Below are positions 23,633-63,383 of a stretch of 64,000 nucleotides of DNA, piece by piece. This DNA is from Sedimentisphaerales bacterium (GTDB taxonomy: Bacteria > Planctomycetota > Phycisphaerae > Sedimentisphaerales > SM23-30). The translations under genes were made by a program, and so were the position numbers. The DNA is taken from contig JANQJS010000012.1 in assembly GCA_028281535.1 (NCBI GenBank), positions 107,185-171,184 of the forward strand. Reading direction: 5' to 3'. The notes under the pieces were generated by a model. That model saw nothing but the letters and a program-made list of their open reading frames with translations, searched no databases and was not told the origin of the DNA. The stretch's first letter is position 1. Each line of letters starts with the position of its first letter.

Positions 23633-23829
23633 CTAAACCGTTTTCTCCAGTGAGAAACATCGATCGTTGTGAGACCGATAATCTAAATTTATACAGAGGT
23701 CCATTTGTTATAATCGTATAGTCTGCTATCCACCTTTAAACCTGAGTGAATAACATTTATAACTTCTTTAGGATAAAAGGGTGCGAGAAAGATTATAGGA
23801 CATAATTCAGGTAGTTAATGAAAAGGAGT

Positions 23830-23867
23830 GGGTGGCAGCGTCAAGCAAAGCTTGGCGATGGAGAATT
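23830..23867. repeat. Family-1 structured repeat, copy C (GGGTGGCAGC - hairpin - GATGGAGAAT)
   Basis: GGGTGGCAG, then an 8-bp hairpin CGTCAAGC/GCTTGGCG (23839-23846 / 23850-23857), then ATGGAGAAT. Near-identical to the copy at 28226. Confidence 0.6.
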
Positions 23868-23919
23868 CAGTAAATGCTTTTGGTGAAGTGGAGATAGCGG
23901 GAATGTATAATTGATAAAA

Positions 23920-23997
23920 GTCTCGCCAACCAGGCAGCGACCAACGGGCGCGGGTTACTTTCAGAATGGTCGCGGCGTTAAAAGTGACGAATGTCAC
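23920..23997. repeat. Family-2 structured repeat, copy E1
   Basis: GTCTCGCC-AACCAGGCA-GCGACC..loop..GGTCGC-GGCG, then hairpin GTGAC-GAAT-GTCAC. Aligns along its length with the copies at 40076 and 58829. Confidence 0.6.
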
Positions 23998-25922
23998 CTA
24001 GCGTCCATCCAGTCTTCCCAGAGACCTTGTTCTTTGAGTTTTTCTCGTTGTTTTTCAGAGCGGTAGAGTTTTTCTCGTTGTTTGCGGGCGACTTTATCAT
24101 TGTGTTTTTGAGTTTGATGGAAAATTTTCACTGCACCAGATTCTTGGATGGCTTGATCGCGTTTTTGTCGTGTTGCTTTGCGATAACGACAGATCTTTTT
24201 GCGATCAGCGTTTTCTAGTACATCATCTTTGAGGGACAAAAAGAATTGACATTCACCCGGATCTCCTTGCCGGCCAACACGTCCTGTGAGCTGTTCATCG
24301 AGACGTTGCAGGGGGGATCGGTCAGTGCCTAACAAAAACATACCACCTTGCTGTGCAATATTTTCACCTAGTAATATGTCGACGCCACGCCCGGCCATAT
24401 TGGTAATGATTGTAATACGATTGGCCTGACCGGCTTGTGCAATAATATCCGCTTCTCGCGTATGATTTTTTGCGTTAAGAACATCATGTTCAAGTTGACG
24501 TTCTGTGAGCATATTGCTGATGCGTTCTGAAGCAAGTACCGACCCAGTACCAATGAGAATCGGTCGTCCCGTTTTGTGAATTTCTTCTATTTTTTCGAGG
24601 ATCGCCAGGTTCTTTTGTTTCAGAGTGCGGTAAACCTGGTCGTTAAGAATTTTGCGTTGCTTGAGTTTGTTAGGAGGTATAGGTACAATCGATAAATCAT
24701 AAACCGATTTAAATTCTCGGGCGGAAACGGAGGCGCTACCTGTCATGCCGCTAAGTTTCGGGTACTTGCGAAAGAATGTTTGGAAGGTCGTGGATGCAGT
24801 CCCTTTTAATTCCGCTGAAGGCTGCAAGCCATTTCGTTGTTCGATGGATTGATGAATGCCATCAGGCAATTGACGTCCCGGAATGAGCCTGCCCGTTGAC
24901 TCATCAATCAAGACAACTTTGTCATCTTGGATCACATAGTGTTGATCTTTTTTATAAATGTATCGAGCGGCCAACGCACAGGTAATATAGCGTTCCCAGC
25001 GATGTCCACTTGGTAGTGTTCGTAATAAAGCACCGACATTTTTTCGGGATGCTGCTTTGCCTTCATCTTTAAGTTCAATACTGCGATCATCCTGCATAAT
25101 TCGGAAATGTTCGCCACGATTGAGTTGACCAGCAATTTCATCCGCTTTTTCGTATAAAGCAATTTGCCCAGAAACCCGTGTGCCACCCGCTAGTGAGATA
25201 GGACTACGTGCCTGGTCAATCAGAACGCTATCAATTTCATCGACAATGACAAAATCATATTTGGGGTTCAGTTCCGGTTGTTTGTCGGGACGAAGGATCG
25301 CATCCACTGAGCCAGTTTGCCTTTTGCGCACCGGTTCACGCAGTGAATCAAAGACAATATCGCGTGCCGTTGAGTAAACGACATGCTGTTGATACGCATT
25401 TATTTTTTCCTGCATTCCCGATTGTGGCATGATGAGCCCGACGGTCAAACCTAACCCTTTATAGAGCGGCTCCATCCAATTGGCATCACGCTGGGCAAGA
25501 TATTCATTGGCCGTGACAATATGACAACATCGATCAACCGCACTGGCATGATGCAAAAACGCCGAAAGGGGAGCCATGAGCGTTTTGCCTTCCCCCGTAT
25601 CCATCTCGGCAATGTGTCCTTCATAAAGTGCCAGGGTACCGATGAGCTGGCAGTCATAGTGACGCATATTAAGCATGCGTTTTGAAACCTCTCGTCCAAT
25701 GGCAAGAAGCTCAGGCAGGATAGGAGTAATTTTAGGTAGAGCTCGCGCCTGAAGTTTCAGCTCGGCAACTTTGTCACCCAGTTCACTGTCACTTAAGTTG
25801 GTCACCGACGATTCAAGTTTATTCGTCTGCTGGACAATTTTTTTATAATGATTCAGCTTATATGATTGCCATGGCTTATGGCAAAGCTGGTACAAAATGC
25901 TCATAAAGGTCTCCATTCGCAC
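23994..25922 (-). CDS. SecA-like ATPase paralog lacking the C-terminal translocation domains
   Basis: MRHYDCQLIG, EMDTGEGKTL, VDEIDSVLIDQARSP and GRVGRQGDPGECQFFLSL match SecA NBD1/PPXD/NBD2. Only ~75 aa (Lys/Arg/Glu-rich) follow NBD2, giving 642 aa versus ~850-900 aa typical. Start codon uncertain (M1/M3/M7). Confidence 0.8.
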   Translation of the reverse strand: MRMETFMSILYQLCHKPWQSYKLNHYKKIVQQTNKLESSVTNLSDSELGDKVAELKLQARALPKITPILPELLAIGREVSKRMLNMRHYDCQLIGTLALYEGHIAEMDTGEGKTLMAPLSAFLHHASAVDRCCHIVTANEYLAQRDANWMEPLYKGLGLTVGLIMPQSGMQEKINAYQQHVVYSTARDIVFDSLREPVRKRQTGSVDAILRPDKQPELNPKYDFVIVDEIDSVLIDQARSPISLAGGTRVSGQIALYEKADEIAGQLNRGEHFRIMQDDRSIELKDEGKAASRKNVGALLRTLPSGHRWERYITCALAARYIYKKDQHYVIQDDKVVLIDESTGRLIPGRQLPDGIHQSIEQRNGLQPSAELKGTASTTFQTFFRKYPKLSGMTGSASVSAREFKSVYDLSIVPIPPNKLKQRKILNDQVYRTLKQKNLAILEKIEEIHKTGRPILIGTGSVLASERISNMLTERQLEHDVLNAKNHTREADIIAQAGQANRITIITNMAGRGVDILLGENIAQQGGMFLLGTDRSPLQRLDEQLTGRVGRQGDPGECQFFLSLKDDVLENADRKKICRYRKATRQKRDQAIQESGAVKIFHQTQKHNDKVARKQREKLYRSEKQREKLKEQGLWEDWMDAR

Positions 25923-27992: not shown

Positions 27993-28225
27993 AATGACCT
28001 TCTATTTCCACCCTCGGAATAGTACCGTGCTTACGTGATTGTATTATAACAATATAATTAATCAATATCAAATATTAATATTGACGATTGTGATTTTATC
28101 GGCTTTTTTAGGCCATTTCTTTACCCAGAGTCGCCAGGTTATCAAAAAAAGTTTTACCCGTGATTTTTTCCTCAGGATATGATTAAATACCCCCATTCCT
28201 AAACCTAATATTGAGTATAAAAAAT

Positions 28226-28263
28226 GGGTGGCAGCGTCAAGTAGTGCTTGGCGATGAGGAATG
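28226..28263. repeat. Family-1 structured repeat, copy D
   Basis: GGGTGGCAG plus hairpin CGTCAAG/CTTGGCG (28235-28241 / 28247-28253) plus ATGAGGAAT. Ends 31 nt before the ppnP ATG. Confidence 0.6.
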
Positions 28264-28294: not shown

Positions 28295-28576
28295 ATGTTC
28301 GACGTCAATGAATATTTCGATGGTAAGGTAAAATCAATCAGCTTCAAAACGGCCGATGGCGCAGCCACGGTAGGTGTCATGGCAGCAGGGGAATATGAAT
28401 TTGGCACGTCGACGGTCGAATTTATGACTGTGACCAGCGGTTCTTTGGATATTTTACTTCCAGGCGAATCGGACTGGAAAACATATGGTCCTAATGAAAC
28501 TTTTAAGGTCGAAGCCAACCATAAATTCCAAGTAAAAGTCTCTCGGGATGCATCTTACTTGTGTCTCTATAAATAA
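28295..28576 (+). CDS. ppnP: Pyrimidine/purine nucleoside phosphorylase PpnP (DUF1255)
   Basis: MFDVNEYFDGKVKSISF...GVM..GEY.F.T...E.MTV.SG.L..LLP...DW..Y......F.V......F.V.......SYLC.Y is colinear with E. coli YaiE/PpnP as I recall it. Confidence 0.9.
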   Translation: MFDVNEYFDGKVKSISFKTADGAATVGVMAAGEYEFGTSTVEFMTVTSGSLDILLPGESDWKTYGPNETFKVEANHKFQVKVSRDASYLCLYK

Positions 28577-39031: not shown

Positions 39032-39932
39032 GGCAAATCCTTTCCTTTTAAGTAAAAAACTTTACGATCAGATGTGTTGTCACAAATCAGCGCAAGCAGC
39101 GCGTACGTCTTAGTGAGTCCATTGACCGAAATTTGATAAGTTGGCTGAGAGGGGGGTAGCTAAGCTAGCTACAGAAGGAGGTTCAGGTCACTTAACGCCA
39201 CTCGGTATGTCATCCCGGAGCGAGATGGACAACAACAATAAAAGTAAAATTGTTTCATGAGTGACTACCTGATTAATAAATAATAACTCTGCTCTTACAT
39301 AAAATTCCGGGCAGAACACATCCACATTCTGTCCTGCCCGGCGAGTTCGGGAATAGGTTTGAGGGCAGATATTCAAAACTATCCGTAATAAATTGTTCGA
39401 TTTTTATAGTCTCTAATTCATACACAGAATCTAAAAAACCATTCGGTTTTATTCGCGTTTAAATCTCAACTTTCTTTGTCGAGATAACTTCAGCGACCTG
39501 TCAAAGACATCGTGATATTTGTTATGTTAGCATTGCGATGTCCGTACCAAGATTACGCCCCAAAAAATCCCGGGTTCGAAAAAATCGGTCAAATCGTCAT
39601 CAAAAAAGGTCGATTTTTTTTAACCCAATAATAACGATAACCTCAACGATAATATATATATGAGTAAAAATAAGCGATCAAAGATAGAGCTGTTTATCTA
39701 CCTAAAGTGCCACCCAAAACATTCAGACGACATGCACACATAAGTTATTTCGACTGAAGTCCCAAAGGGACGAATTAGAGAAATCTAAAACCTACAATTA
39801 ATTAAATACGATTGGATAAAAGTAAGAACCAAAAAATTCAAAATGTAGAAAACTTAAAAGTTCACGACAGAAAAACAAACCATTACTCAATGAAGCAATA
39901 AGCAACTGAGTTTCTTTTTATTTTTACCACCT

Positions 39933-39960
39933 GTTGACTTTGCATAATTATATGATATAA
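39933..39960 (+). promoter_or_regulatory. Sigma70-type promoter with extended -10 for the ast operon leader
   Basis: TTGACT (39933-39938), 16-nt spacer, TGaTATAAT (39952-39960), with a T-rich UP-like tract upstream. Predicted TSS is near 39967, 210 nt before the ATG at 40177. Confidence 0.55.
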
Positions 39961-40075
39961 TTATAAAGTATAAGGTCATGGGCTGAACCGACTTTCAACG
40001 TCCCTCCGAAACCCAATTCTCTTTAAAAACGTAATAATAAATGTATGCGCATAATGAAGACGTATAAACGCTAAC

Positions 40076-40156
40076 GGTCTCGCCAACCAAGTAGCGACCA
40101 ACGGGAGCGAGTTCCCAACCAAAAGGTCGCGGCGTAATTTATACAGGCGAACGCCT
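40076..40156. repeat. Family-2 structured repeat, copy E2 (inside the ast leader)
   Basis: GTCTCGCC-AACCAAGTA-GCGACC..GGGA/TCCC..GGTCGC-GGCG, then hairpin CAGGC-GAAC-GCCTG (40143-40156). Confidence 0.6.
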
Positions 40157-40176
40157 GAAAACACGATAATTATATT

Positions 40177-41391
40177 ATGCAGAACCACTTAAAACATCTT
40201 GAATGGATCGATAGCCAACAGGAGCGAATGCTGACCCTTCTAACTGATTGGACCAGCGTCAATTCCCACAGCTATAATCTTATAGGGCTTAAATCCATGG
40301 CCCAGAAACTCGCCGATGAATTTAAGGTTCTGGATGGTCAAATGAAGATGTTAGACCTGAAACCATATAAAATCATTGATCAAGAGGGCAATCCTAAAGA
40401 GCAGCAATTAGGTCAGGCCATCTCGATCACTAAACGAGAAGATGCAGACAAATCTGTTTTTCTAGGCATCCACATGGACACCGTTTTCAAAGAAAATGAT
40501 TCATTCCAATCAAGCAAAATGATCGATGAGGATAAATTAAATGGCCCAGGCGTCATCGATGCCAAAGGCGGACTTGCCGTCATGCTCATCGCACTGCAAG
40601 CCTTTGAGCAATCAGAAGTCGCCAAAAATATCGGCTGGGAAATACTCATCAATCCAGATGAAGAAATCGCTTCTCCTGGTTCAGCACCGTTATTCCAACA
40701 AGCAGCCAAACGAAACCAACTAGGTTTTGTTTACGAACCCGCCTTACCAAACGGTTCACTGATCAGCAGTCGAAAAGGCTCAGGAAATTTCACTATCGTC
40801 GCACGAGGCAGAGCTTCTCATGCTGGACGTGATTTCTATTCAGGGCGCAGCGCTATCCTGGCAATCAGCGAATTCATCATTGAACTAAATAAACTTAATG
40901 ATCAACAAAAGGAAATCACCGTAAACATCGGTGAAATCAAAGGCGGCCAAGCCGTTAATGTTGTTCCCGATTTGGCGATTGCAAAATTTAATATTCGGTT
41001 TAAAAATATCGATGATCAAAAATCAATCGAACAAAAACTAAACCAACTGATTGAAACACATAATCAAAAAGAAGGATTTCAATTTGAACTTTCGGGAAGC
41101 TTTTTGAGTCCACCAAAAATGTTAACAGAAAAATTACAAACATTTATGAATCAAATAACAGATTGCGGCAAAGAACTTGGATTGGACCTAACCTACCAAT
41201 CAAGTGGCGGCGTCTGCGATGGCAATAAACTGGCCGCAGCCGGTTTGCCAACCATCGATACCTTAGGCCCTGTTGGAGAGAATATGCATAACGCAAACGA
41301 AACACTCTTCATCAATAGCCTGACCGAGCGTGCGAAGCTGACGTGCCTTTTTCTACTGAAATTGGCAACAAACAACGAGTTTAAATGTTAA
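40177..41391 (+). CDS. M20-family metallopeptidase (CPG2/DapE/ArgE-like amidohydrolase); candidate succinylglutamate desuccinylase substitute
   Basis: HMDTVF, GPGVIDAKGG and NPDEEIASPGS are M20 metal and catalytic motifs. First gene of the ast cluster. Confidence 0.8.
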   Translation: MQNHLKHLEWIDSQQERMLTLLTDWTSVNSHSYNLIGLKSMAQKLADEFKVLDGQMKMLDLKPYKIIDQEGNPKEQQLGQAISITKREDADKSVFLGIHMDTVFKENDSFQSSKMIDEDKLNGPGVIDAKGGLAVMLIALQAFEQSEVAKNIGWEILINPDEEIASPGSAPLFQQAAKRNQLGFVYEPALPNGSLISSRKGSGNFTIVARGRASHAGRDFYSGRSAILAISEFIIELNKLNDQQKEITVNIGEIKGGQAVNVVPDLAIAKFNIRFKNIDDQKSIEQKLNQLIETHNQKEGFQFELSGSFLSPPKMLTEKLQTFMNQITDCGKELGLDLTYQSSGGVCDGNKLAAAGLPTIDTLGPVGENMHNANETLFINSLTERAKLTCLFLLKLATNNEFKC

Positions 41392-41431
41392 ACTTAAACA
41401 ATGACAATTTAAGCAGATAGAGAGAGAATTT

Positions 41432-42817
41432 ATGAAATCTTTAGCAGCTGAAAGCTTTATGTCAGACCCGAGGATTGGGCAAGCCAGGCAATTAATACTG
41501 GATAGCCTGGCTGACGCTCAGAAATCGCTTATTGGCGTAAAACCCGCCGATCCTGAGCGAAAACAAACCTATGAACAAGCCATCAAAGAAATGTGTCAAT
41601 TGCGTGGCGGTGGCTTGTTCTATCCTTATCTTGGCAGCGGTCTGGGAAATGGTGCCCTGGTCGAGCTTGCTGATGGCAGCGTCAAGTACGATCTCATCAG
41701 CGGCATCGGCGTCCATTGGATGGGCCACAGCCATCCTGACATGGTAAAGGCCTCTTTCGATGCCGCATTGCAAGATACCATTATGCAGGGCAACCTTCAG
41801 CAGAATACAGATTCATTTGAACTCATCGATCGCTTTGTCAAACTTGCACAAAAAAATGGCTCCAAGCTGGAGCATTGCTATCTATCCACCAGTGGAGCAA
41901 TGGCAAACGAAAATGCACTAAAAATTGCATTACAAAAAAATCATCCACGTCAACGTGTCTTAGCTTTTTCACGATGCTTTGCCGGACGAACGCTGGCCGT
42001 ATCGCAAATTACAGATAACGCCGCCTACCGCCAAGGACTACCATCGGTGATCGATGTCGATTACGTCCCATTCTTCAATCCAGACCAACCAGAAAAAAGT
42101 ATCGAACATTCCGTCAAAGTTCTAAAGCGACTTATCGAGCGTTACCCAGATCAGCATGCCGTCATGTGTATGGAACTCATCCAAGGAGAGGGGGGCTACT
42201 ATTCTGGTGATCGCGATTTCTTTATCGCTCTAATCGACGTTCTCAAAGAAAATAATATCGCTGTGATGTTTGATGAAATTCAAACTTTTGGACGCACAAC
42301 CCAGCCGTTTGCTTTCCAACATTTTAGTTTAGATGAATACGCAGATATAGTAACGGTTGGTAAAATGTCGCAGGTCTGTGCCACAATTTACGTAGACAAT
42401 TACAAACCAAAACCGGGTCTGATTAGCCAAACCTTTACGGGCGGCACAGGCGCTATTTGGGCAGCAAACGCTATTTTGAAAGAATTGAATGAAGGACATA
42501 TTTTTGGCGATGATGGTAAAATCGTTCAAGTTCACAATGCCTTTGTCAGCGAATTTGAAAAAATCAATGAGAAACATCCTGACCTGATTTCAGGCCCCTT
42601 TGGCATTGGTGGTATGATTGCTTTCACACCTTTTGGCGGTGATGGCGCCAAAGTCAAAGAATTCATCACAACTTTATTTAATGAAGGCGTGATTGGATTC
42701 CCGTGTGGTACGTCGCCACGCCGCGTGCGATTTTTACCGCCTATTGGATCAATCACAGAAGACGATATCAAAAAATCTTGTGAAATTATTGAAGCAATTC
42801 TTTTGAAAATTGCATAA
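41432..42817 (+). CDS. Class-III PLP aminotransferase, divergent AstC/ArgD-like
   Basis: STSGAMANENALKIA, FAGRT, FDEIQTFGRT and VTVGKMSQ (PLP lysine context). 461 aa. Sits immediately upstream of astA. Confidence 0.72.
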   Translation: MKSLAAESFMSDPRIGQARQLILDSLADAQKSLIGVKPADPERKQTYEQAIKEMCQLRGGGLFYPYLGSGLGNGALVELADGSVKYDLISGIGVHWMGHSHPDMVKASFDAALQDTIMQGNLQQNTDSFELIDRFVKLAQKNGSKLEHCYLSTSGAMANENALKIALQKNHPRQRVLAFSRCFAGRTLAVSQITDNAAYRQGLPSVIDVDYVPFFNPDQPEKSIEHSVKVLKRLIERYPDQHAVMCMELIQGEGGYYSGDRDFFIALIDVLKENNIAVMFDEIQTFGRTTQPFAFQHFSLDEYADIVTVGKMSQVCATIYVDNYKPKPGLISQTFTGGTGAIWAANAILKELNEGHIFGDDGKIVQVHNAFVSEFEKINEKHPDLISGPFGIGGMIAFTPFGGDGAKVKEFITTLFNEGVIGFPCGTSPRRVRFLPPIGSITEDDIKKSCEIIEAILLKIA

Positions 42818-42831
42818 TTGGAAAAAAGAAA

Positions 42832-43860
42832 ATGAATATTGTTCGACCTATTACAATAGAAGATTTAGATCAACTCTACGAGCTGGCATTGCTCCGTGGT
42901 GTTGGCCTCACGTCGCTGCCCAAGGATAAAAAGCAGCTGCGTAAAAAAATTCTCAGTGCTCAGCGTGGATTCAATTTGACAGAAGAAGATGATCCTGCAG
43001 GCGAACAATATTTATTTGTACTGGAAGATGTGGAGAAACAGAAACTCGTTGGGGTAAGTGGTATTCATTCGAAAGTGGGTGGCTTCGAGCCATTTTATAC
43101 TTACCAGATTGAAGATTCGGTTCATGAATCGAAATCTCTAAAAGTTTCCCGGAAAATCCCTACTTTGCATCTGGTCGTTGACCATGATGGGCCGAGCGAA
43201 GTTGGCACATTGTTTCTACATCCTGATTATCGTCAAGGCGGCAATGGCCGATTTCTTTCACTAACACGATTTTTGTATATGGCGCAATGTCCGGATTATT
43301 TTGATGAATTAGTTATCGCAGAAATCCGCGGCGTCATAGATGAAAATGGAGGTTCGCCCTTCTGGGATGCTTTGGGGAGTCATTTCTTTGTTCTCGACTT
43401 TAATACCGCAGATGAACTCAGTGCGGTGGATAAAAAATTCATCGCCGACTTGATGCCCAAGCATCCCATTTATATTCCAACATTGCCACAAGCCGCACAA
43501 GATGTCATTGGCGAACCCAATGACAAAAGCAGGCCAGCAATGAAAATTCTGGAAAAAGAAGGCTTTGAATATTGCCATAGTGTGGATATATTTGAAGCTG
43601 GCCCAACGGTGAGCTGCCAATTAGAAAATATTCGAACCATCAAAGAAAGTAAAGTCATGAAAATCGGTGAAATTTCTGATACTGAAATTAATTCTGACAT
43701 TTATATGATTAGCAATAATTCTAAAGAATTTCGTGCATGCATGGGAAATATTGAAAAATTAGGAAGTAGTAAAGTGCGAATAACTTCGCAAGTTGCTCAA
43801 GCCTTAAAATTAAACATTGGGGATGAATGCCGATTTGTTCTACTGCGCCCAAACGGTTAA
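42832..43860 (+). CDS. astA: Arginine N-succinyltransferase
   Basis: MNIVRPITIEDLDQLYELA..GVGLTSLP and the overall AstA-like length and pattern. Followed by astD and astB. Confidence 0.82.
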   Translation: MNIVRPITIEDLDQLYELALLRGVGLTSLPKDKKQLRKKILSAQRGFNLTEEDDPAGEQYLFVLEDVEKQKLVGVSGIHSKVGGFEPFYTYQIEDSVHESKSLKVSRKIPTLHLVVDHDGPSEVGTLFLHPDYRQGGNGRFLSLTRFLYMAQCPDYFDELVIAEIRGVIDENGGSPFWDALGSHFFVLDFNTADELSAVDKKFIADLMPKHPIYIPTLPQAAQDVIGEPNDKSRPAMKILEKEGFEYCHSVDIFEAGPTVSCQLENIRTIKESKVMKIGEISDTEINSDIYMISNNSKEFRACMGNIEKLGSSKVRITSQVAQALKLNIGDECRFVLLRPNG

Positions 43861-43874
43861 TTAAAGGAAATGGC

Positions 43875-45344
43875 ATGTCAGAAAATATCCATTATGTAAA
43901 TAATCAGTGGCTATCCGGTGGGACTGAAACGATTGTGTCTCTCAATCCTGCAACCAATCAGCCTGTTTGGACGGGTCTTGCCGCGGATAAGGATTTCGTT
44001 GATCAAGCTGTTGAGGCTGCCTGCCAGGCTTTGCCAGCATGGTCCAATCTGGATTTGGAAAAACGAATTGGCTACCTCAAAGCTTACGAAGAAGCTTTGC
44101 GTTCAATCCAAAATGAAATGGTAGAGACGATTAGTAAAGAAAATGGCAAACCTCTTTGGGAAGCTAAAACAGAAGTTCAAGCAATGCTGGGAAAAATTGA
44201 TTTGACGATCAAAGCTTATCAAGATCGCACAAACCATCATGTCAATCAATCGAGTAATACTACCCAGGCTCTTCGATACAAACCTCATGGTATCATTGGA
44301 ATCATCGGCCCATTTAATTTGCCGGGACATATAACTCATGGTCAAATTATTCCTGCTTTGTTGGCGGGCAATACGGTCGTTTTTAAGCCAAGTGAGCTTG
44401 CTCCTTTAGTTGGCCAAAAGTTGATTGAGCTTTGGGAGCAAGTTGGTCTTCCAGCTGGTGTTCTCAATATGGTACAGGGGGGCGGGGAAACAGGGAAAGC
44501 ATTATGTCAGCATTCTAATTTGAATGGCTTATTTTTTACTGGAAGTTTTAAGGTTGGCGTTGAATTAAATAAAGCGTTTGCATCTGATCCTGGGAAAATT
44601 TTGGCATTGGAGATGGGCGGCAACAATCCTTTAGTTGTTCATCAGGCGGTAGATTTGGATGCCGCGGCATATTTGGTGATGCAATCAGCGTTTATTACTT
44701 CTGGCCAGCGATGCACTTGTGCTCGACGACTTATTGTTCCCGAAGGTAAAGAAGGTGATTTACTGATTGATCATGTTGTTAATTGGACGAAAAAAATTCA
44801 AGTTGGACCTTATACGCAAGATCCTGAACCTTTCATGGGACCTGTTGTAACATCTCAAGTAGCGCAACGATTATTGGAAGCACAAGCTAGCTTGCAAGAT
44901 CGAGGTGGAAAATCAATTATTGAAATGTCACCTATTTTAGAGCATGGTTCATTTTTGTCTCCAGGTTTGATAGATGTCACTGAGATCTGCGATCGGCAAG
45001 ATGAAGAGATTTTTGGCCCATTACTACAAATTGTCCGAGTAAAAAATTATGATACTGCAATCGAAGAAGCAAATAATACAAGTTATGGACTTTCTGCTGG
45101 TTTGATTAGCAATAATGCCAGTTTATATAATGAATTTCGTCAGCGAGTCAATGCTGGTTTGGTAAACTGGAATCGTCAAATTACTGGTGCGAGCGGAGCA
45201 CTTCCATTTGGTGGTATTGGGCAGAGTGGGAATCATCGACCTTGTGGGTATTTTACTGTCGATTTATGCTGCTATCCTGTAGGTTCCATTGAACAGGATG
45301 GCTTGAGTTTACCTGAAAAACTTACGCCAGGGATGGATGGATGA
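43875..45344 (+). CDS. astD: Succinylglutamate-semialdehyde dehydrogenase
   Basis: Aldehyde dehydrogenase motifs (FKPSELAP, LEMGGNNP, SGQRCTCARR, EEIFGPLL). ATG at 43875; the track ORF start at 43827 overlaps astA. Confidence 0.88.
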   Translation: MSENIHYVNNQWLSGGTETIVSLNPATNQPVWTGLAADKDFVDQAVEAACQALPAWSNLDLEKRIGYLKAYEEALRSIQNEMVETISKENGKPLWEAKTEVQAMLGKIDLTIKAYQDRTNHHVNQSSNTTQALRYKPHGIIGIIGPFNLPGHITHGQIIPALLAGNTVVFKPSELAPLVGQKLIELWEQVGLPAGVLNMVQGGGETGKALCQHSNLNGLFFTGSFKVGVELNKAFASDPGKILALEMGGNNPLVVHQAVDLDAAAYLVMQSAFITSGQRCTCARRLIVPEGKEGDLLIDHVVNWTKKIQVGPYTQDPEPFMGPVVTSQVAQRLLEAQASLQDRGGKSIIEMSPILEHGSFLSPGLIDVTEICDRQDEEIFGPLLQIVRVKNYDTAIEEANNTSYGLSAGLISNNASLYNEFRQRVNAGLVNWNRQITGASGALPFGGIGQSGNHRPCGYFTVDLCCYPVGSIEQDGLSLPEKLTPGMDG

Positions 45345-46684
45345 GTGGTGGATTTGAAGTCAATTTCGATGGCTTAGTTGGGCCAACCTATCATTATGGC
45401 GGATTGTCTTATGGCAATATCGCCAGTAAAAAACATTCCGGCCAAATTTCAAATCCAAAACAAGCCGCTCTTCAGGGATTAGAAAAAATGAAATTCCTGC
45501 ATGACCTAGGACTGAAGCAAGCTTTCTTGCCACCTCAGCAGCGACCTGATTTACGATATCTAAACGCTTTAGGTTATAGTGGGCAGCTAAAAAAAATCAT
45601 CGAAAAAATTGCCAAAGAAGATATGGGCTTTTTGTCAGCATGTTTTAGTGCTTCGAATATGTGGACTGCGAATGCTGCAACGATTTCTCCTAGTAAGGAT
45701 TGTGAGAATGGGAAAATTCATATTACCCCGGCAAATTTAGCGACACAATTGCACCGTTCAATGGAAAAAGATTGGACATCTCGGTTATTAAAATCAGTTT
45801 TTAGTGATTTAACTATTTTTCAACATCATGTTGCTCTTCCTAGCGAGCGTTATTTTAGTGACGAAGGTGCTGCTAATCATATTCGATTATGTCGAGATTA
45901 TGATTCTGAAGGGATTGAAGTGTTTGTTTTTGGGCAAGATAACCATTCTAAATTACCAGCAACAAAATATCCCATACGACAATCTTTACAGGCTTCTGAG
46001 TGTATCGCTCGGTCCCATCAGTTGAATCGAGATCGTACACTATTTGTTCAACAAAACCCAGAGGCAATTAATGCAGGGGTTTTTCATAATGATGTTATTT
46101 CCGTTGGTAATTTAAACGTTTTCTTTTATCACGAGAAAGCATTTGTTGAAACTCAGAAAGCAGTATCCGCTATACGGAAAACTTTTGAAGATCATTGTCA
46201 GGCTCATTTATATTTAATTGAAGTCAAAGAAAATCACGTTTCACTAGCAGACGCTGTAGCGTCTTATTTGTTTAATAGTCAGCTAATATCAGTGACTGAT
46301 GAAAAAATGGCATTGATTTGCCCAAGTGATTGTGAAAATTTTAGTCACATTAAAGATCTTTTGAATGAAATTTTGGAGAAAGATAATCCTATCCAAGAAG
46401 TTCATTATGTTAATGTCCGGCAAAGTATGCAAAATGGCGGTGGGCCAGCTTGCTTACGTTTGAGAGTTGTCTTAAATGATAGGCAGCTAGTGGGATGTCA
46501 TTCTGGAGTTCTTTTCGATGAAATCGTTTACGACAAATTAAAGATGTGGGTCAAACAATATTATCGAGACAAGTTACATCTTGATGATCTTGCCGACCCT
46601 AAATTATGGGAAGAAAATTGTCAGGCATTTAGTGTGTTAAGTGATGTCTTAAAGCTAGAACCATCACTTTACAATTCATATTAA
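45341..46684 (+). CDS. astB: N-succinylarginine dihydrolase
   Basis: EVNFDGLVGPTYHYGGLSYGNIAS, FHNDVI and C-terminal NGGGPACLRLRV are AstB hallmarks. A 4-nt overlap (ATGA) with astD suggests translational coupling. Confidence 0.92.
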   Translation: MSGGFEVNFDGLVGPTYHYGGLSYGNIASKKHSGQISNPKQAALQGLEKMKFLHDLGLKQAFLPPQQRPDLRYLNALGYSGQLKKIIEKIAKEDMGFLSACFSASNMWTANAATISPSKDCENGKIHITPANLATQLHRSMEKDWTSRLLKSVFSDLTIFQHHVALPSERYFSDEGAANHIRLCRDYDSEGIEVFVFGQDNHSKLPATKYPIRQSLQASECIARSHQLNRDRTLFVQQNPEAINAGVFHNDVISVGNLNVFFYHEKAFVETQKAVSAIRKTFEDHCQAHLYLIEVKENHVSLADAVASYLFNSQLISVTDEKMALICPSDCENFSHIKDLLNEILEKDNPIQEVHYVNVRQSMQNGGGPACLRLRVVLNDRQLVGCHSGVLFDEIVYDKLKMWVKQYYRDKLHLDDLADPKLWEENCQAFSVLSDVLKLEPSLYNSY

Positions 46685-56261: not shown

Positions 56262-56300
56262 GGGTGGCAGCCTCAGCTCAATTTATTGAGATGGGAATGG
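56262..56300. repeat. Family-1 structured repeat, copy B (overlaps the 3' end of the 56278..56961 CDS)
   Basis: GGGTGGCAGCCTCAG plus hairpin CTCAA-TTTA-TTGAG (56277-56290) plus ATGGGAATGG. The stop codon (56278-56280) lies inside the hairpin arm. Confidence 0.6.
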
Positions 56301-56961
56301 GGGTTTCCTTTTCTGTGGTGGTTTGGAATCCGGATGCACTTTTTTCTAGCATTTTTTCGATTTGTTTTTGATAGGAGAGTTTTCCACCTTTGGTTAAGCT
56401 TGTTTGGATTTGTTGGTTGCCGAGTAGTTGGCCGGTGTTTGGATTAACGACATTGATGTAGACAATGACAGGTGTTTCTTTCTTTTTATCAATAATAACA
56501 TTTTCATCAAGTGCGATGATAGGTTTTGTGTCGATAAGAGTCTGTTTTATAGCGGGAACAACTTTAGATGTTTTCGTTTCTTTTTTGACCGTCAAAGGAT
56601 TGGATTGCGGGATGTTGAGTGTGCCATAGCTTTTCTTTTTTTGTTCATTGGTGGCTTGTACTTTTATTTTATCTCCGGGTTGGGCTTGAATGTGTGTTGT
56701 AAAGCTACCATCAGCAGCGACGGCAACTTGTTCGCTTTTTCGAGTGATGTGAATTTCTACCTTGGCAGGGCTGGATGTTTCGATACTTCCTGCCCGTCCT
56801 TCAATTTGCACAATGCCTTTTGAGTTTGGAGGTGAAATAGCAATGTTATGTTTATGCACTTTGATTTTTCTATCTATAGCAAAAGCCAAGAGTGCGGTTG
56901 AACAAAGAATTAAAAGCCCGCATGCTATACGAATGTTGAAATTTACGTCTGATTTTTTCAT
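56278..56961 (-). CDS. Hypothetical secreted/anchored protein
   Basis: N-terminal hydrophobic anchor, beta-rich Lys/Thr/Gln-rich sequence, no recognisable motif. Confidence 0.5.
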   Translation of the reverse strand: MKKSDVNFNIRIACGLLILCSTALLAFAIDRKIKVHKHNIAISPPNSKGIVQIEGRAGSIETSSPAKVEIHITRKSEQVAVAADGSFTTHIQAQPGDKIKVQATNEQKKKSYGTLNIPQSNPLTVKKETKTSKVVPAIKQTLIDTKPIIALDENVIIDKKKETPVIVYINVVNPNTGQLLGNQQIQTSLTKGGKLSYQKQIEKMLEKSASGFQTTTEKETPIPISIN

Positions 56962-57079: not shown

Positions 57080-57172
57080 GGGTGGCAGCCTCAGCTCAAT
57101 ATATCGAGATGGGGATGGTGGAATGCGAGCAGGCCATCCCAATTTCACCTACGGTGAGCGGAGGCTGCCACC
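57080..57172. repeat. Family-1 structured repeat, copy A (full 93-nt palindromic rod)
   Basis: 12-bp perfect inverted repeat GGTGGCAGCCTC (57081-57092)/GAGGCTGCCACC (57161-57172), extended by GCTCA/TGAGC, with inner 7-bp helix GGGATGG/CCATCCC. Confidence 0.65.
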
Positions 57173-58579: not shown

Positions 58580-58828
58580 ACCTGGTTCTCCTTTGCGCTG
58601 AGATTGCGCGAATGCATTACCAAGTGTGGGCTGTGCGGGTACAGTGGTCGTATGGTAATTTTGATAAGTTTATATTTTAACTTTGTACCAACTGTGACGC
58701 GATTTTTCGCGTAATGTCTATTTACGGATTTGGGTTCTCGCGTACAAAAAGAATTATATTAACCTGGTAAGTGGATATTTAACCATCCATCTAATGACCA
58801 ATAAAACTTCAAATACTTTATTGTAAAT

Positions 58829-58909
58829 GTCTCGCTCAAATGTAGGCGACAACGGAGCCGGGTTAGTGACTCCATAATCGCGGCGTTCTTAAAGTAGGCG
58901 AACGCCTAC
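58829..58909. repeat. Family-2 structured repeat, copy E3
   Basis: GTCTCGCT-CAAATGTAG-GCGA..GGAG/CTCC..TCGC-GGCG, then hairpin GTAGGC-GAAC-GCCTAC (58894-58909), followed on the plus strand by a T-rich tract. Confidence 0.6.
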
Positions 58910-59784
58910 AGTTCTTTTATTTTTATGTTTTTGAAATAGGCTTTCATTTTGGTGCCATCATGCACTTGTAAGCCAATTTTACCTTCTGTATGTGCTTGAG
59001 GTGAATTATCGACATGGTCCAGAACCAACTCGCCATTGACCCAGTGTTGCAGGTGATTGCCTTGACAGCGGATGACAATGCTATTCCAACCGAGTGGTTT
59101 AAATGCTTTGTTTAGTTTTTCTTGGTCACCGAGATGACGATAGTTCGGGCGGACAAACCAATCTCCAATAGAACCCCAGTAGTTACCGACGACCCATTCA
59201 AAACCATCATCCTCTTCTTCTGACTCCTCTTCATCCATCTCTTCTTCGTGTTCTTGAGCTTCTGCTTGCTCTAAGTCGTATTCTTCTTGTTCTATGACGA
59301 ACATGTCAAACTCGTATGCAGCAGGGGCCATGAAAGGTTGCCATTCATCTTCTTCTTCTGGTTCGCCTTCATCTTCCATCTCTTCTTCTTTGGGTTCGTC
59401 TGCTTCGCCTTGCTCATCCTCTTCTTCATCTTCATCGTGACCTGTAAAGAGAAATGGGGTCGCACGATACCAAATACCGCTATTGCGATAGAGATCACCT
59501 ACAATTTTTGCCTCCAGGTGCAATTCGAAATCTTTGAAGGTATTGTAGGTATAGAGCCAGGAAAATTTTTCTGCTACTTTATCCAAGTCTCCAGAGACCA
59601 TGGCGCCATCTTCAATCGACCAAACACCGTCGCTGTTATCCCAATGGGTAAAATCTTTGCCATCAAAAAGTGAGACAAATCCACGTTTGTCAGAATCACA
59701 ACAGGATTGTGTTGTTTGGCAACCATTAAATAATAATAGGGTTAAAAGCGTGAGGATAAAAGATTGAGATATAACTCGAGACAT
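58906..59784 (-). CDS. DUF1080 (3-keto-disaccharide hydrolase-like jelly-roll) lipoprotein with two poly-acidic insertions
   Basis: Lipobox LLFNGC; FDGKDFTHWD..WSIEDGAM and the C-terminal LQVHDGTKMKAYFKNIKIKEL are DUF1080 hallmarks. The ATG ending at 59784 is preferred over the track start at 59850. Confidence 0.7.
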   Translation of the reverse strand: MSRVISQSFILTLLTLLLFNGCQTTQSCCDSDKRGFVSLFDGKDFTHWDNSDGVWSIEDGAMVSGDLDKVAEKFSWLYTYNTFKDFELHLEAKIVGDLYRNSGIWYRATPFLFTGHDEDEEEDEQGEADEPKEEEMEDEGEPEEEDEWQPFMAPAAYEFDMFVIEQEEYDLEQAEAQEHEEEMDEEESEEEDDGFEWVVGNYWGSIGDWFVRPNYRHLGDQEKLNKAFKPLGWNSIVIRCQGNHLQHWVNGELVLDHVDNSPQAHTEGKIGLQVHDGTKMKAYFKNIKIKEL

Positions 59785-59878
59785 ACCATGGTTCCTTTCT
59801 CGGGAAGATAAACGATGGACTCTTCTGTATTCTATTTGGGTAGCGAACAAATAATCTTATACTGAAGTAAGCGGTAAC

Positions 59879-60778
59879 TTACAATTCTTTAATTTTAATA
59901 TTCTTAAACTGAATTTTCATGTCTGCACCCTGGAAAACTTGCAGGGCAATTTTTCCAGCCAGGGGAGCGAGCTCGTCGGAGTCGGTAAAGTCAACCATTA
60001 GCACACCATTTATCCAGTGTTGCACGCGGTTGCCTTCACAGCGAATGACGACTTTATTCCAATCATTATAATGAAAGGCTTTTTTGACCTCGTCGAGATT
60101 TTCCGTTTTTAACTCATGCAAATCGCGTCGATAGGAATCGTGAAGTGTGCCCCAGAAATGGGTCATTTCAGAGAGGCCTTCATCCTTGATTTCTTCTTCG
60201 CTATCGATAGAGTAGATATCGAATTCATAGCCAGTCACAGCCACAATGACAGGACGCTCAGCATCTTTTTCGTCTTCGTCATCGTTATCATCTGCTTGTT
60301 CATCGTCTAGATCTTCGCTTTGCTCTAGTTCAGGCTCTTCTTCGCCATTGTCTTCAAATTCTTCATCTTCATCTTCATCTTCATCTTCATCCTCTTCTTC
60401 TTCGACATAAGCAAACGGTCTAGCTCTGTGCCAGATTCCACTGTTACGATTAAGTTCGCCAGTCATTTTCGCTTCAAGGTGAAGTTCATAATTTTTGTAG
60501 ACACCAGTGGAATACATGACAGGATATTCTTCTATGCTTGTATCAGAATCACCCGCAGTTAATGCTCCATCTTCAACGCGCCAAAGTCCTGTCTTGTCTT
60601 CCCAGCCCGTGAGATCTTTTCCGTTGAACAATGATACATATTCATCATTTGAGAATATCGATCCTATTGCTGTGATAGGACATTTCGTTTCGCAGTTACT
60701 GCTGCAACCATTTAAAAATAATAGGGTCATACAGCTTAGCAATAGCATGGGTAATGTTCTGAAAATTACCATATTCAC
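59879..60778 (-). CDS. DUF1080 lipoprotein paralog with two poly-acidic insertions
   Basis: Lipobox FLNGC; FNGKDLTGWE..WRVEDGAL; C-terminal LQVFQGADMKIQFKNIKIKEL. Colinear with the neighbouring paralog, including insert positions. Confidence 0.7.
   Translation of the reverse strand: MNMVIFRTLPMLLLSCMTLLFLNGCSSNCETKCPITAIGSIFSNDEYVSLFNGKDLTGWEDKTGLWRVEDGALTAGDSDTSIEEYPVMYSTGVYKNYELHLEAKMTGELNRNSGIWHRARPFAYVEEEEDEDEDEDEDEEFEDNGEEEPELEQSEDLDDEQADDNDDEDEKDAERPVIVAVTGYEFDIYSIDSEEEIKDEGLSEMTHFWGTLHDSYRRDLHELKTENLDEVKKAFHYNDWNKVVIRCEGNRVQHWINGVLMVDFTDSDELAPLAGKIALQVFQGADMKIQFKNIKIKEL
60361..60390. repeat. Perfect hexanucleotide microsatellite (TTCATC)x5 inside a CDS
   Basis: Read directly: ttcatc repeated five times. 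It encodes the (ED)n run on the minus strand. Confidence 0.9.
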
Positions 60779-60809: not shown

Positions 60810-63383
60810 TTAATTAAAATCTTTCATGCCAAGTTTAACGCTTTTTGTCTTAGCACTTAAAGAATATGTTTTGCCATTATAGTGAATTTTGGTAGATACG
60901 CCGTGCGGATTTTTAATCGATGCAGATTTCAATTGTCCTTTATCCCAGGTCAGATCAATTTTAAAACCACCGCGGGCGGCGGTGCCTTCAATGGATCCTG
61001 CTGACCATGCATCTGGCAGGGCGGGTAGAAGGTAAATATGTCCTTTTTCTGACATCATGAGCATTTCAATCATCAATCCAGGTAGGCCACCACAAATATC
61101 GACATTAAAAATAGAGTCTGGATCATGGTAGGATACCAAGCCGGGGGTCCAATATTGTTTGCTGGTAAGCCAGTCGACACATTCGTAAGCACGTTTGACA
61201 TCTTGAATATGTGCCGCGGCTAATCCAAGATGTACGATACCAAATGCCATTTCAGCACCATTTCTACCGCGGCGATATTCCAGGCGGTTTTCAATCGCTT
61301 GCTTGGTTGCTTCGATGAGTTCAGGGCTTGATTTGATATCTGGATCGACTTCATACCAGAGAGGGTACAAGTGTGAAGCATGACGATGTTCATCATCATT
61401 TTTTAAGCCAGGCCAGAGCCATTCTTTAAGTGCACCATCTTCACCGATCATGTAATTTGGCATTTTTGCTAACATGGATTTCCACTTTTTGACACGCTTT
61501 GGATCAATCTCCACATCTTTGCTGAGTGTAATGAGGTTTTGGAATAATTGTTTTGCTGCAGCAACATCCATGGTTGCGTTAGGTGTCGCAGTCGATTTTG
61601 AACCTTTAGGGCCAATCTCTGGTGAATAGGAAGGAACAAACACCAGTTTGCCATCTTTCTCAACAGTAAGGAAATCTTCAAAGAATAGGGCCGCTTCCAA
61701 CATGAATGGCAATGCGCGTGTTTTTAGAAATTCTTCATCTTGCGTGTATTGCCAATAGTCATAGTAGAATTGAGCCATCCAAGGTGTACCGGCTGTCCAG
61801 AAGATGTGTGGGAAATAGCCATCGTAATGATTGTTCAGGCCATGATCACTGCTACGAGAGGGTGTCATGATACCACGAGCGTTAAATAATCGTTTGGCAT
61901 TGCTACGATAGTGATCCATAAATTGTGCAAAGTGATCTAAGAACACAAGTGTGCCTTCGTGATAACCACCAGCCAGGTTGTAAGCAATGGCCGTTGGAGC
62001 ATTCCCATTTAATGTAAAATCGCTGCTCCATGCCGGGCGCCAAGTGCCACCCCAGATCCCTTGAAGGGTTGGTGGAATCTTGCCTGTGCTGCAAATGACA
62101 GCGTAGCGAGCCGCATCGAATAGCTTTTGTTGGAACGATAATTTTTCAACATTGGGTTTAGCTTTTGCTAATAGTTGTTCAGATGTGAGATCGTCATCAT
62201 TGCCATTTAACTCAAGTTTGACACGTCCAAATAAATCACTATGAATCGCAACGTGTGATTTGAGCAATTTATCGTAGGACCTTGAGCTTTTAGCAATAGA
62301 GCGTTTTATTTCTTGGATGGGTTTTGGAGAAAAATCATCCAGCACCTCTACTTTGGCTGTCAATAAAACTTCATTAGCATTAGAAATGTTTAGCCAGCCA
62401 TCACCGTCAGTGATTTTTCCATTCTTAGTGGTAACCTTAGCGGCTACGATATAGCCGTGGATCTGATGATCCCAATGTTTGTTAAATTCAGTGGTATACT
62501 CAAGCCAATTGTTAGCAGCGATGGCATTCGTGGCTTTGAGGACTTGTTCTGTTGGAATTCTAGCGTCTACTTCTTCCTCTTCATCTTCTTCACCTTCCTT
62601 TGTGAATTCTTCTTCGTCGCCTTCATCATCATCCTCTTCGTGCTCTTCTTCATCGTTTTCTTCTGAATCAGATTCATCGCTTTCTTCTTCGTCGCCTTCC
62701 TCTCCTTCTTCCTCCACTTCACTAGCGTGTGGGAGTTGGGCGAGTTGTAGACGGCAATTGATTGGGGTATTGTTTGGGCTCGAGATTTTTAGTACTACAA
62801 AGCCATCTGCTCGTGAGACGAACATTTGTTTTTGGAAAATACCTGCATCGCTTTCCCAGCCAACAGTGGTTTCAGCGGTTTGGAAGTTTGTTGAGCGTGC
62901 ATAGTTTTTTATTTCGGATTGGTTCTGCATTTCAATATGCAACTGACAAGCAGGGATGAGTGGGTCTGTCCAAACCATGCCTGGGATTTCATTTTCTTTT
63001 CCTATATCTTCAATAAGCTTAGCTGATTTATGGCCTTGGCCATTAAGAATCCACTCACGAATTTTATCGAGATGGTCGCCAGTAGGAGGTGCTTCGACTG
63101 GGTAGTTTTCAGGGAAGAACAATCTTTCGTGGCTCAATGCTATTGCGTCATTGAGGGCATTGCCAGGCACAAGAGCACCTACGGTGCCGTTACCTGTGAT
63201 CATGGAGTGTTCCCATCTTTTGGCTGGTTTTGAACTGACGTACCCCTGGGTCGGTTGCGTCATAGAAAGTTTATCTAATGAATTGTGTTGCCCATGACTG
63301 TAGGCTGTCACACTGAATAATGTCATGAGGAAAAATGTTGAGAAGGTAGCTTGCACACGAATTTTTTGGCTGATTTTTGACAT
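60810..63383 (-). CDS. GH95-like glycoside hydrolase (alpha-L-fucosidase family architecture) with a ~55-aa poly-acidic insertion
   Basis: Signal peptide. The N-terminal GNGTVGALVPG....D.I.LSHERLF resembles the GH95-type N-terminal domain, and the protein is long (857 aa) with an alpha-helical catalytic-type C-terminal half. Family call is from memory. Confidence 0.62.
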   Translation of the reverse strand: MSKISQKIRVQATFSTFFLMTLFSVTAYSHGQHNSLDKLSMTQPTQGYVSSKPAKRWEHSMITGNGTVGALVPGNALNDAIALSHERLFFPENYPVEAPPTGDHLDKIREWILNGQGHKSAKLIEDIGKENEIPGMVWTDPLIPACQLHIEMQNQSEIKNYARSTNFQTAETTVGWESDAGIFQKQMFVSRADGFVVLKISSPNNTPINCRLQLAQLPHASEVEEEGEEGDEEESDESDSEENDEEEHEEDDDEGDEEEFTKEGEEDEEEEVDARIPTEQVLKATNAIAANNWLEYTTEFNKHWDHQIHGYIVAAKVTTKNGKITDGDGWLNISNANEVLLTAKVEVLDDFSPKPIQEIKRSIAKSSRSYDKLLKSHVAIHSDLFGRVKLELNGNDDDLTSEQLLAKAKPNVEKLSFQQKLFDAARYAVICSTGKIPPTLQGIWGGTWRPAWSSDFTLNGNAPTAIAYNLAGGYHEGTLVFLDHFAQFMDHYRSNAKRLFNARGIMTPSRSSDHGLNNHYDGYFPHIFWTAGTPWMAQFYYDYWQYTQDEEFLKTRALPFMLEAALFFEDFLTVEKDGKLVFVPSYSPEIGPKGSKSTATPNATMDVAAAKQLFQNLITLSKDVEIDPKRVKKWKSMLAKMPNYMIGEDGALKEWLWPGLKNDDEHRHASHLYPLWYEVDPDIKSSPELIEATKQAIENRLEYRRGRNGAEMAFGIVHLGLAAAHIQDVKRAYECVDWLTSKQYWTPGLVSYHDPDSIFNVDICGGLPGLMIEMLMMSEKGHIYLLPALPDAWSAGSIEGTAARGGFKIDLTWDKGQLKSASIKNPHGVSTKIHYNGKTYSLSAKTKSVKLGMKDFN

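Follow-up and report, generated by a model that had tools for sequence, protein, structure and literature searches.

MITEs such as Correia/NEMIS are short, non-coding, intergenic elements that can sit in UTRs and alter transcripts. Integron attC sites conserve structure over sequence, with conserved basal boxes, a variable centre and extrahelical bases, and the small self-cleaving ribozymes (HDV-like, hammerhead, twister, pistol and hatchet) are ~60–90 nt long, multi-copy and not tied to any gene context. A REP-like family is as a rule lineage-specific. REP, REPIN and BIME elements have been described by Bertels and Rainey (PMC3337134, PMC3116915). In REPINs the REP arms are conserved and every spacer is different yet hairpin-forming, in a unit of ~89 bp (PMC3337134). 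Here, we describe a dispersed structured repeat in a planctomycete and compare it with these systems.

The window (the whole stretch analysed, 64,000 nt of a Sedimentisphaerales bacterium) contains pth, rpsF-ssb-rpsR-rplI, acs, a MutS2-like gene and tRNAs. It carries three copies of a ~96-base GC-rich hairpin-forming repeat, all on the plus strand and all intergenic:

23905–23998, plus strand: copy 1, covariance-model score 92.9 bits
23905–23911, plus strand: 5′ extension of copy 1, GTATAAT
23920–23977, plus strand: conserved core of copy 1
23984–23997, plus strand: hairpin of copy 1, GTGAC-GAAT-GTCAC
40062–40157, plus strand: copy 2, covariance-model score 95.6 bits
40062–40068 (GTATAAA) with 40138–40144 (TTTATAC), plus strand: helix P0 of copy 2
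40077–40134, plus strand: core of copy 2
40081–40084 with 40131–40134, plus strand: helix P1 of copy 2
40094–40099 with 40125–40130, plus strand: helix P2 of copy 2
40144–40157, plus strand: terminal hairpin of copy 2, CAGGC-GAAC-GCCTG
58814–58909, plus strand: copy 3, covariance-model score 87.6 bits
58814–58820 (TACTTTA) with 58890–58896 (TAAAGTA), plus strand: helix P0 of copy 3
58829–58885, plus strand: core of copy 3
58894–58909, plus strand: hairpin of copy 3, GTAGGC-GAAC-GCCTAC

A preliminary description of this DNA had reported three segments aligning end to end, and they are indeed present on the plus strand. It had placed copy 2 at 40076–40156, where the element does lie, but the core begins at 40077 and the hairpin ends at 40157, one base later. 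The boxes common to all three copies are GTCTCGC, GCGA(C), CAACGG, CGRGTT and TCGCGGCGT, plus a hairpin whose GAAY loop is closed by a C-G pair. In our alignment (A3, numbered from the G of GTCTCGC as column 1), GTCTCGC occupies columns 1–7, GCGA 18–21, CAACGG 23–28, CG.GTT 32–37 and TCGCGGCGT 51–59. The pattern AACGG-N22-TCGCGGCG, which was derived from the same three copies that it counts, occurs 3 times in the window against 0.01 expected. The covariance-model check proposed in the preliminary description was run on the window; the model, trained on the three copies, gave them 88–96 bits and its runner-up 17 bits (128 kb, both strands). C-GAAY-G hairpins with at least 5 bp number 4 in the window against 0.22 expected, three of them being the repeat copies. 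The flanks beyond the copies are dissimilar, blastn among them returning only chance 9–12-mers, and the copies stand out as GC islands (54–58% GC versus 41% for the genome and window).

Our main new finding is a covarying outer helix, P0, in copies 2 and 3. An inverted-repeat scan found this 7-bp helix with perfect complementarity in both copies, as GTATAAA/TTTATAC in copy 2 and TACTTTA/TAAAGTA in copy 3, with 5 of the 7 pairs changed on both sides. The register is identical in the two copies, the arms lying at –15 to –9 and +62 to +68 from the G of GTCTCGC and being spaced 69 nt apart, an interval that includes offsetting indels between copies 2 and 3. When the flanks were shuffled, a helix of at least 7 bp arose anywhere in 1.1–1.4% of trials per copy, and a P0 of the same register in both copies arose in 0 of 30000 shuffles. 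The 3′ arm and the terminal hairpin have 1 nt in common in copy 2 and 3 nt in copy 3. P0 is absent from copy 1, whose copy-2-like 5′ arm, GTATAAT, is without a partner and whose linker is unrelated to that of copy 2 and 3 nt shorter. P0 makes the unit ~96 nt long rather than 80, and it also turns the –10-like box of the preliminary description into the 5′ strand of a helix. The boxes named there exist (TATAAT at 23906, TATAAA at 40063) but are better read as the P0 5′ arm; the box covaries with the linker, and its equivalent in copy 3, TACTTTA, is not –10-like. The start of any transcript that folds P0 must therefore lie upstream of this box.

Within the core, P1 (columns 5–8/55–58, CGCY/GGCG) and P2 (columns 18–23/49–54, GCGA(CC)/(GG)TCGC) are paired in essentially every cell of the three-sequence alignment, with a one-sided bulge of 9–10 nt between them. 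Their sequence is invariant apart from copy 3, where one C-G pair of P1 has become U-G and P2 is shortened, and because these GC-rich stems never vary they offer no covariation evidence for their pairing. Both helices proposed earlier, CGCY/GGCG and GCGACC/GGTCGC, are thus there, with the G-U pair in copy 3, but their invariance is silent on whether they pair. In the terminal hairpin, three pairs have changed on both sides across the three copies; its stem had been said to change completely, and pairing is indeed kept, but AGGCGAACGCCT is common to copies 2 and 3. As for the inner helix of the preliminary description, it exists as GGGA/TCCC in copy 2 and GGAG/CTCC in copy 3, but its 3′ columns are non-homologous and copy 1 has none. 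An apical helix is present in two of the three copies only. RNAalifold favours an invariant AAC/GUU extension of P2 over the inner helix, and an alternative pairing of CUCGC (3–7) with GCGRG (31–35) fits the data equally well. Folding energies are unremarkable, the z-scores for copies 1–3 being 0.04, –2.1 and –1.1 on the plus strand and –0.5, –1.0 and –3.5 on the minus strand. Only folding of the plus strand is compatible with the U-G pair that copy 3 has in P1 and with the G..C/G..U ends of the hairpin loop. Several positions are unpaired in the model yet invariant, namely TAA..GTCT before P1, CAACGG, CGRGTT and the U after GGCG. The 8-mer CCAACCAA occurs twice in copy 2, in the 5′ bulge (40084–40091) and the 3′ internal loop (40115–40122), both unpaired; copy 1 has it in the bulge only, as CCAACCA, and copy 3 in neither segment.

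Conservation among the copies is mosaic. Columns that never vary occur in clusters (runs test: core, P ~1e-4; overall, 3e-3), so this is not a duplication in uniform decay. Segments 1–7 and 51–59 show 100% identity in all pairs, while in segments 8–17, 38–50 and 60–66 identity falls to 1/10, 3/13 and 2/7, respectively. Between –15 and +37 copies 1 and 2 hardly differ, but they are unrelated from +38 to +48 and from about +60 on. Such a mosaic comes either from strong selection acting on certain boxes or from modules being shuffled among many copies. Most of the boxes that stay the same are GC-rich stem arms, and variation is found in loops, bulges and the outer helix; such a combination of invariant stems and variable loops is the reverse of most riboswitch and ribozyme alignments. 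The earlier view of a structured element rather than a decaying duplication is borne out by the clustered invariance and by the pairing kept in P0 (5 of 7 pairs) and in the hairpin (3 pairs).

The genomic contexts of the three copies involve the following features:

39934–39961, plus strand: promoter-like site TTGACT-16-(TG)TATAAT, sigma-70-type, 11 of 12 consensus matches with the TG present (a consensus match only)
40177–46684, plus strand: gene cluster 3′ of copy 2, encoding an M20 hydrolase (40177–41391), a class III aminotransferase, AstA, an aldehyde dehydrogenase and AstB
23994–25922, minus strand: SecA-like ATPase ORF, its TGA stop (23994–23996) inside the copy 1 hairpin
58906–59850, minus strand: DUF1080 (3-keto-disaccharide hydrolase-like) ORF, its TAG stop (58906–58908) inside the copy 3 hairpin

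Copy 2 sits between divergent genes. AstA and AstB were assigned by Pfam on a Logan contig (L118) that is identical to the window, and the succession of M20 hydrolase, aminotransferase, AstA, aldehyde dehydrogenase and AstB makes "ast cluster" a fair name. The promoter-like site, ~100 nt upstream of copy 2, would put the repeat inside a ~205-nt leader, in agreement with the preliminary description of copy 2 as part of the leader of a strong promoter, to the extent that a consensus match defines one. The distance to the ATG at 40177, given there as 20 nt, is 19 nt from the end of the hairpin. This hairpin has no T-run and does not overlap the start codon, and the fold of the whole leader is not unusual (z = 0.12). 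The framing of the repeat as an ast element did not hold up: only one of the three copies lies in such a leader, which makes the repeat look like a scattered family and not like an RNA switch specific to ast, and the M20-aminotransferase locus of another MAG is without it.

Several side observations concern this region. Public annotation of the M20 gene (P0001, 364 aa) begins 40 codons after the start of the 404-aa ORF (40177–40297), directly after a promoter-like TGGACC-18-TATAAT at 40249–40278. The M20 hydrolase has its nearest relative at only 54% identity; most homologues are ~400–420 aa long (range 384–454) and cover 90–100% of the long ORF, so the start at 40177 looks right. GCATAATG (40049–40056) pairs with TATTATGC (40173–40180) through 7 Watson-Crick pairs and one G-U, a pairing that would enclose all of copy 2 and bury the M20 AUG, and that by a rough estimate is indistinguishable from chance in A/T-rich sequence. 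No ORF of convincing length lies in the ~1 kb (39032–40061) that separates a baeRF-like gene, resembling ribosome hibernation factors, from the ast promoter region. The only other C-GAAY-G hairpin of the window, AAAACCGAATGGTTTT followed by TT (39435–39450, minus strand), is terminator-like and lies in the same non-coding gap, which measures 1.1 kb from the baeRF-like gene to copy 2; its model score is 8.8 bits and it may be unrelated.

Copies 1 and 3 each lie between co-directional minus-strand genes, with no plus-strand gene downstream. A consensus scan predicted no promoter adjoining any of the three copies themselves, and a T-run follows the hairpin in copy 3 and is absent from copies 1 and 2. 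The neighbouring genes of the three copies share no function, and the nearest start codons are between 19 nt and ~1 kb away from the copies. Other roles were considered and rejected. As an intrinsic terminator the repeat is partial at best in either orientation. A coding function is excluded, as the minus-strand ORFs that run across copies 1 and 2 are in different frames and copy 3 carries an indel. The variable segments show no above-chance complementarity in the window that would suggest a guide or seed, the best match being one 11-mer on the wrong strand for mRNA pairing there, and sigma-54 boxes, ArgR boxes and a CsrA GGA motif were rejected by eye. Next to copy 3, two adjacent DUF1080 paralogues (58906–60778) carry long Asp/Glu-rich inserts, and a neighbouring GH95 gene has similar acidic runs (62571–62722). 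The same DUF1080 architecture was found in only two other proteins among 5.8 billion, 58% and 39% identical, the former (P0243) on a contig from the same sequencing run as this genome.

Searches for relatives of the repeat returned no homologue. All three copies gave nothing at gathering score in Rfam and nothing consistent at E up to 10, in line with the preliminary statement that the repeat matches no known class. A blastn search of plasmids and phages with copy 2 gave nothing relevant, and a strict 25-base pattern had zero matches in viral contigs and two chance matches only in JGI metagenomes, both inside a GC-rich coding sequence. A loose 20-base pattern with two gaps had at least 117 chance matches in GC-rich genomes of a genome collection, none of them real among the matches listed. 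A Logan contig (SRR20820735) is identical to the window over the ast leader, and other Logan contigs are identical or short. Several window proteins had no record in exact-protein look-ups. The best named relatives of the SecA-like protein are in Sedimentisphaerales/Phycisphaerae MAGs, at 60–63% identity, the closest overall being at 67%, and no copy was found at the SecA-like loci of Sedimentisphaerales relatives (61–67% identity). Neither the locus of a DUF1080 paralogue and GH95, nor a further 8.5-kb contig of the same sample, nor the region upstream of the one M20-aminotransferase locus sampled from another MAG of the same project (L129) contains the repeat; in the relatives and other MAGs sampled, ~70 kb of non-redundant sequence has no copy. 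No transposase or integrase was found among 36 scanned window ORFs and three ast-cluster genes (the latter through precomputed Pfam on L118), which together cover at most all but 18 of the 44 ORFs with 200 aa or more, a minority of the smaller ones and, at RAYT size (~150–190 aa), those in two gaps.

A second short structured repeat family occupies the same intergenic regions as the ~96-nt repeat. Its four plus-strand copies (23829–23866, 28225–28262, 56262–56303 and 57080–57121) begin with GGGTGGCAGC, which precedes a hairpin, and GATGG.GAAT follows the hairpin; the stem is not the same in the two pairs of copies, and there is no Rfam match. One copy lies 54 nt upstream of copy 1 of the ~96-nt repeat and another ~33 nt upstream of a Ppnp nucleoside phosphorylase ORF (28295–28576).

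Among described systems, the closest likeness is to REP, REPIN and BIME elements, with which the repeat shares an extragenic location, often at gene ends, a size of ~90–100 nt, a long imperfect hairpin and a lineage-specific distribution. As in REPINs, conserved inverted arms go with a non-conserved part that still pairs: P0 and the small hairpin keep pairing through sequence change, and an apical helix is present in two of three copies. There are also differences. REPINs pair a 20–25-nt palindromic REP with its inverted copy, whereas the arms here are 4+6 nt, CGCC..GCGACC and GGTCGCGGCG, 10 nt in total with the 9–10-nt bulge between the segments, and are not themselves palindromes. The repeat has an extra covarying outer helix and a separate small hairpin. 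REPs and REPINs come in tens to hundreds per genome, together with a RAYT (Y1/HUH transposase) gene that copies flank. Our three copies are all in one orientation. Membership in REP/REPIN proper, judged here from 64 kb plus 8.5 kb of this genome, is not established.

Like MITEs, the repeat is short, non-coding, intergenic and capable of residing in a UTR; however, no terminal inverted repeat is conserved (the outer arms differ between copies 2 and 3 and are lacking in copy 1), no direct repeats of the target-site duplication type were seen by eye around the three copies, and divergence is mosaic rather than uniform. Riboswitches come to mind because a variable, covarying closing helix surrounds invariant nucleotides and one copy lies in a long leader, but no Rfam family matched at E up to 10, two copies out of three precede no gene, the inner helices P1 and P2 stay constant instead of covarying, and orthologous conservation was not found at the one M20-aminotransferase locus sampled. 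The copies resemble attC sites in lying right after ORF ends, all in one orientation, with conserved boxes at the base. By inspection, they have no RYYYAAC/GTTRRRY core sites, no integrase was found, and the copies are 16–19 kb apart among housekeeping genes instead of forming a cassette array. Finally, GUCUCGC (1–7) can pair with GCGRGUU (31–37), starting with G-U as in HDV P1, but with a U-U mismatch at position 2 and, in copy 3, also a C-C mismatch. In this manual mapping on the A3 alignment only 7 nt separate P2 from the putative P1 3′ strand, with no room for P3/L3 of the nested P1/P2/P3/P1.1/P4 double pseudoknot of HDV-like ribozymes, and none of the three copies matched a self-cleaving ribozyme family in Rfam.

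We tentatively favour the view that these sequences are a lineage-specific, REPIN/BIME-like family of dispersed, non-coding, hairpin-forming intergenic repeats, a reading that is plausible but falls short of probable. It ranks first because what unites the copies is intergenic placement regardless of neighbour, invariant arms and a remainder that pairs. The ~96-nt unit, as single-stranded DNA or as RNA of any transcript crossing it, would form a long bulged hairpin followed by the small C-GAAY-G hairpin, the former made of the outer A/T-rich P0, the GC-rich P1/P2 split by the 9–10-nt bulge, and a variable apical region. The GC-rich arms may stay identical because a trans-acting protein reads their sequence, a candidate being a hairpin-binding enzyme that mobilises the repeat, analogous to RAYT or an IS200/IS605-type enzyme, whereas P0, the apex and the small hairpin would be constrained only to pair. 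Effects on neighbours would be by-products: the structure at the stop codons of the SecA-like and DUF1080 genes could protect 3′ ends of the minus-strand mRNAs or terminate them, and copy 2 would have been inserted into the ast 5′ UTR as a structured segment. That 64 kb contain three copies suggests a high copy number genome-wide, assuming that the window was not chosen for its copies, and the mosaic identity of copies 1 and 2 fits module shuffling among many copies. In addition to contexts that share nothing except being intergenic, this reading accounts for the mosaic conservation, in which the varying helices (P0 and hairpin) keep pairing and the GC-rich inverted arms stay fixed; it is consistent with the lack of matches in Rfam and in ~70 kb from relatives and other MAGs, and with a second short structured family in the same intergenic regions. 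Against it, only three copies were seen, all in one orientation, the 8.5-kb contig of the same sample has none, and no transposase or integrase appeared among the 36 window ORFs and three ast-cluster genes scanned. The inverted arms are short (4+6 nt) and interrupted rather than two full inverted palindromic REPs, the copies fold with ordinary energies, the model leaves several invariant positions unpaired, which looks more like an RNA core, and the plus strand is favoured as the one that folds by the P1 U-G pair of copy 3 and the G..Y loop ends.

These last points bear on a different proposal, that the repeat is a new structured RNA module read from the plus strand, with the covarying P0 around an invariant core (P1/P2, CAACGG and CGRGUU), an A/U linker and the GAAY hairpin. 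We consider this the main and a serious rival, possible but on balance unlikely. Such a module may bind a protein or small ligand, or be a small RNA with its variable bulges as recognition loops; copy 2 would then be a cis-acting part of the ast leader, and copies 1 and 3 would be stand-alone or antisense, converging on the 3′ end of a neighbour. Covariation in P0 and the terminal hairpin around invariant core nucleotides is the usual picture of a functional RNA, GC-rich islands of 54–58% in a 41% GC genome and the plus-strand-only pairs point the same way, and copy 2 is, judging from the promoter-like site at 39934–39961, almost certainly transcribed. In copy 3 the 3′ arm of P0 extends into the base of a hairpin that precedes a T-run, a switch-like layout, and CCAACCAA lies in both unpaired segments of copy 2. 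However, copies 1 and 3 have neither a plus-strand gene downstream nor a predicted promoter, the supposed –10 box lies inside P0, the T-run is limited to copy 3, copy 1 has no P0, and with P1/P2 invariant the core is without covariation support. No homologue appeared in the relatives sampled or, with the strict pattern, in JGI metagenomes, and three copies per 64 kb would be unlikely for a low-copy RNA gene family. The more specific form of this proposal, an undescribed Phycisphaerae RNA class with a P0-closed, ligand- or protein-binding core, acting in cis in the ast leader and stand-alone or antisense elsewhere, its variable segments perhaps programmable loops, is doubtful. Independent small RNA genes are not well supported, the predicted features being no adjoining promoter, a –10 inside P0 and a T-run in copy 3 only. 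A cis-regulator specific to ast, that is, a riboswitch or attenuator sensing arginine catabolism, is the weakest reading that we discuss and a very improbable one. What speaks for it is the place of copy 2 in the ~205-nt leader between a strong promoter-like site and the M20-aminotransferase-AstA-AstD-AstB cluster, but two of three copies lie outside leaders, no T-run follows the copy 2 hairpin, which also stays clear of the start codon, the element is missing from the M20-aminotransferase locus sampled in another MAG, Rfam gave no match and the leader fold is ordinary. Two DNA-level alternatives also seem improbable. If the repeats were a cluster of double-stranded sites for a regulator or nucleoid-associated protein, the GC-rich invariant boxes would be the recognition sequences, and their shortness, fixed spacing, common orientation and free intervening sequence would follow; duplex binding, however, does not explain compensatory changes in P0 and the hairpin, and the neighbours share no function, with start codons anywhere from 19 nt to ~1 kb away. 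Some insertion sequences target palindromes, and a fixed-length mobile unit inserting into the centre of A/T-rich palindromes would make P0 target DNA and not part of the element. Exactly 69 nt separate the P0 arms in both copies, and the joined arms are perfect 14-bp palindromes, GTATAAATTTATAC and TACTTTATAAAGTA, but the 69-nt interval is composed with offsetting indels between copies 2 and 3, and copy 1 has a copy-2-like left arm with no partner. Chance resemblance or neutral remnants of an old duplication might be thought of with only three copies known and weak folding z-scores, but this explanation is effectively refuted, being ruled out by the pattern counts (3 vs 0.01 expected), the model scores (88–96 vs 17 bits), the clustered invariance and the compensatory pairs in fixed register.

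If the repeat is an RNA module, it would be a new RNA motif with real covariation, whose function needs many more copies to be addressed. If instead the REPIN/BIME-like reading is correct, our view of the regulation of arginine catabolism is unchanged, and a REPIN-like family of structured repeats would here be described for the first time in a planctomycete lineage that has received little study. It would help genome annotation, as such elements are mistaken for promoters, small RNAs and riboswitches, and it would show repeats reshaping UTRs, with a stop codon placed in a hairpin at two genes and an insert in the ast leader.
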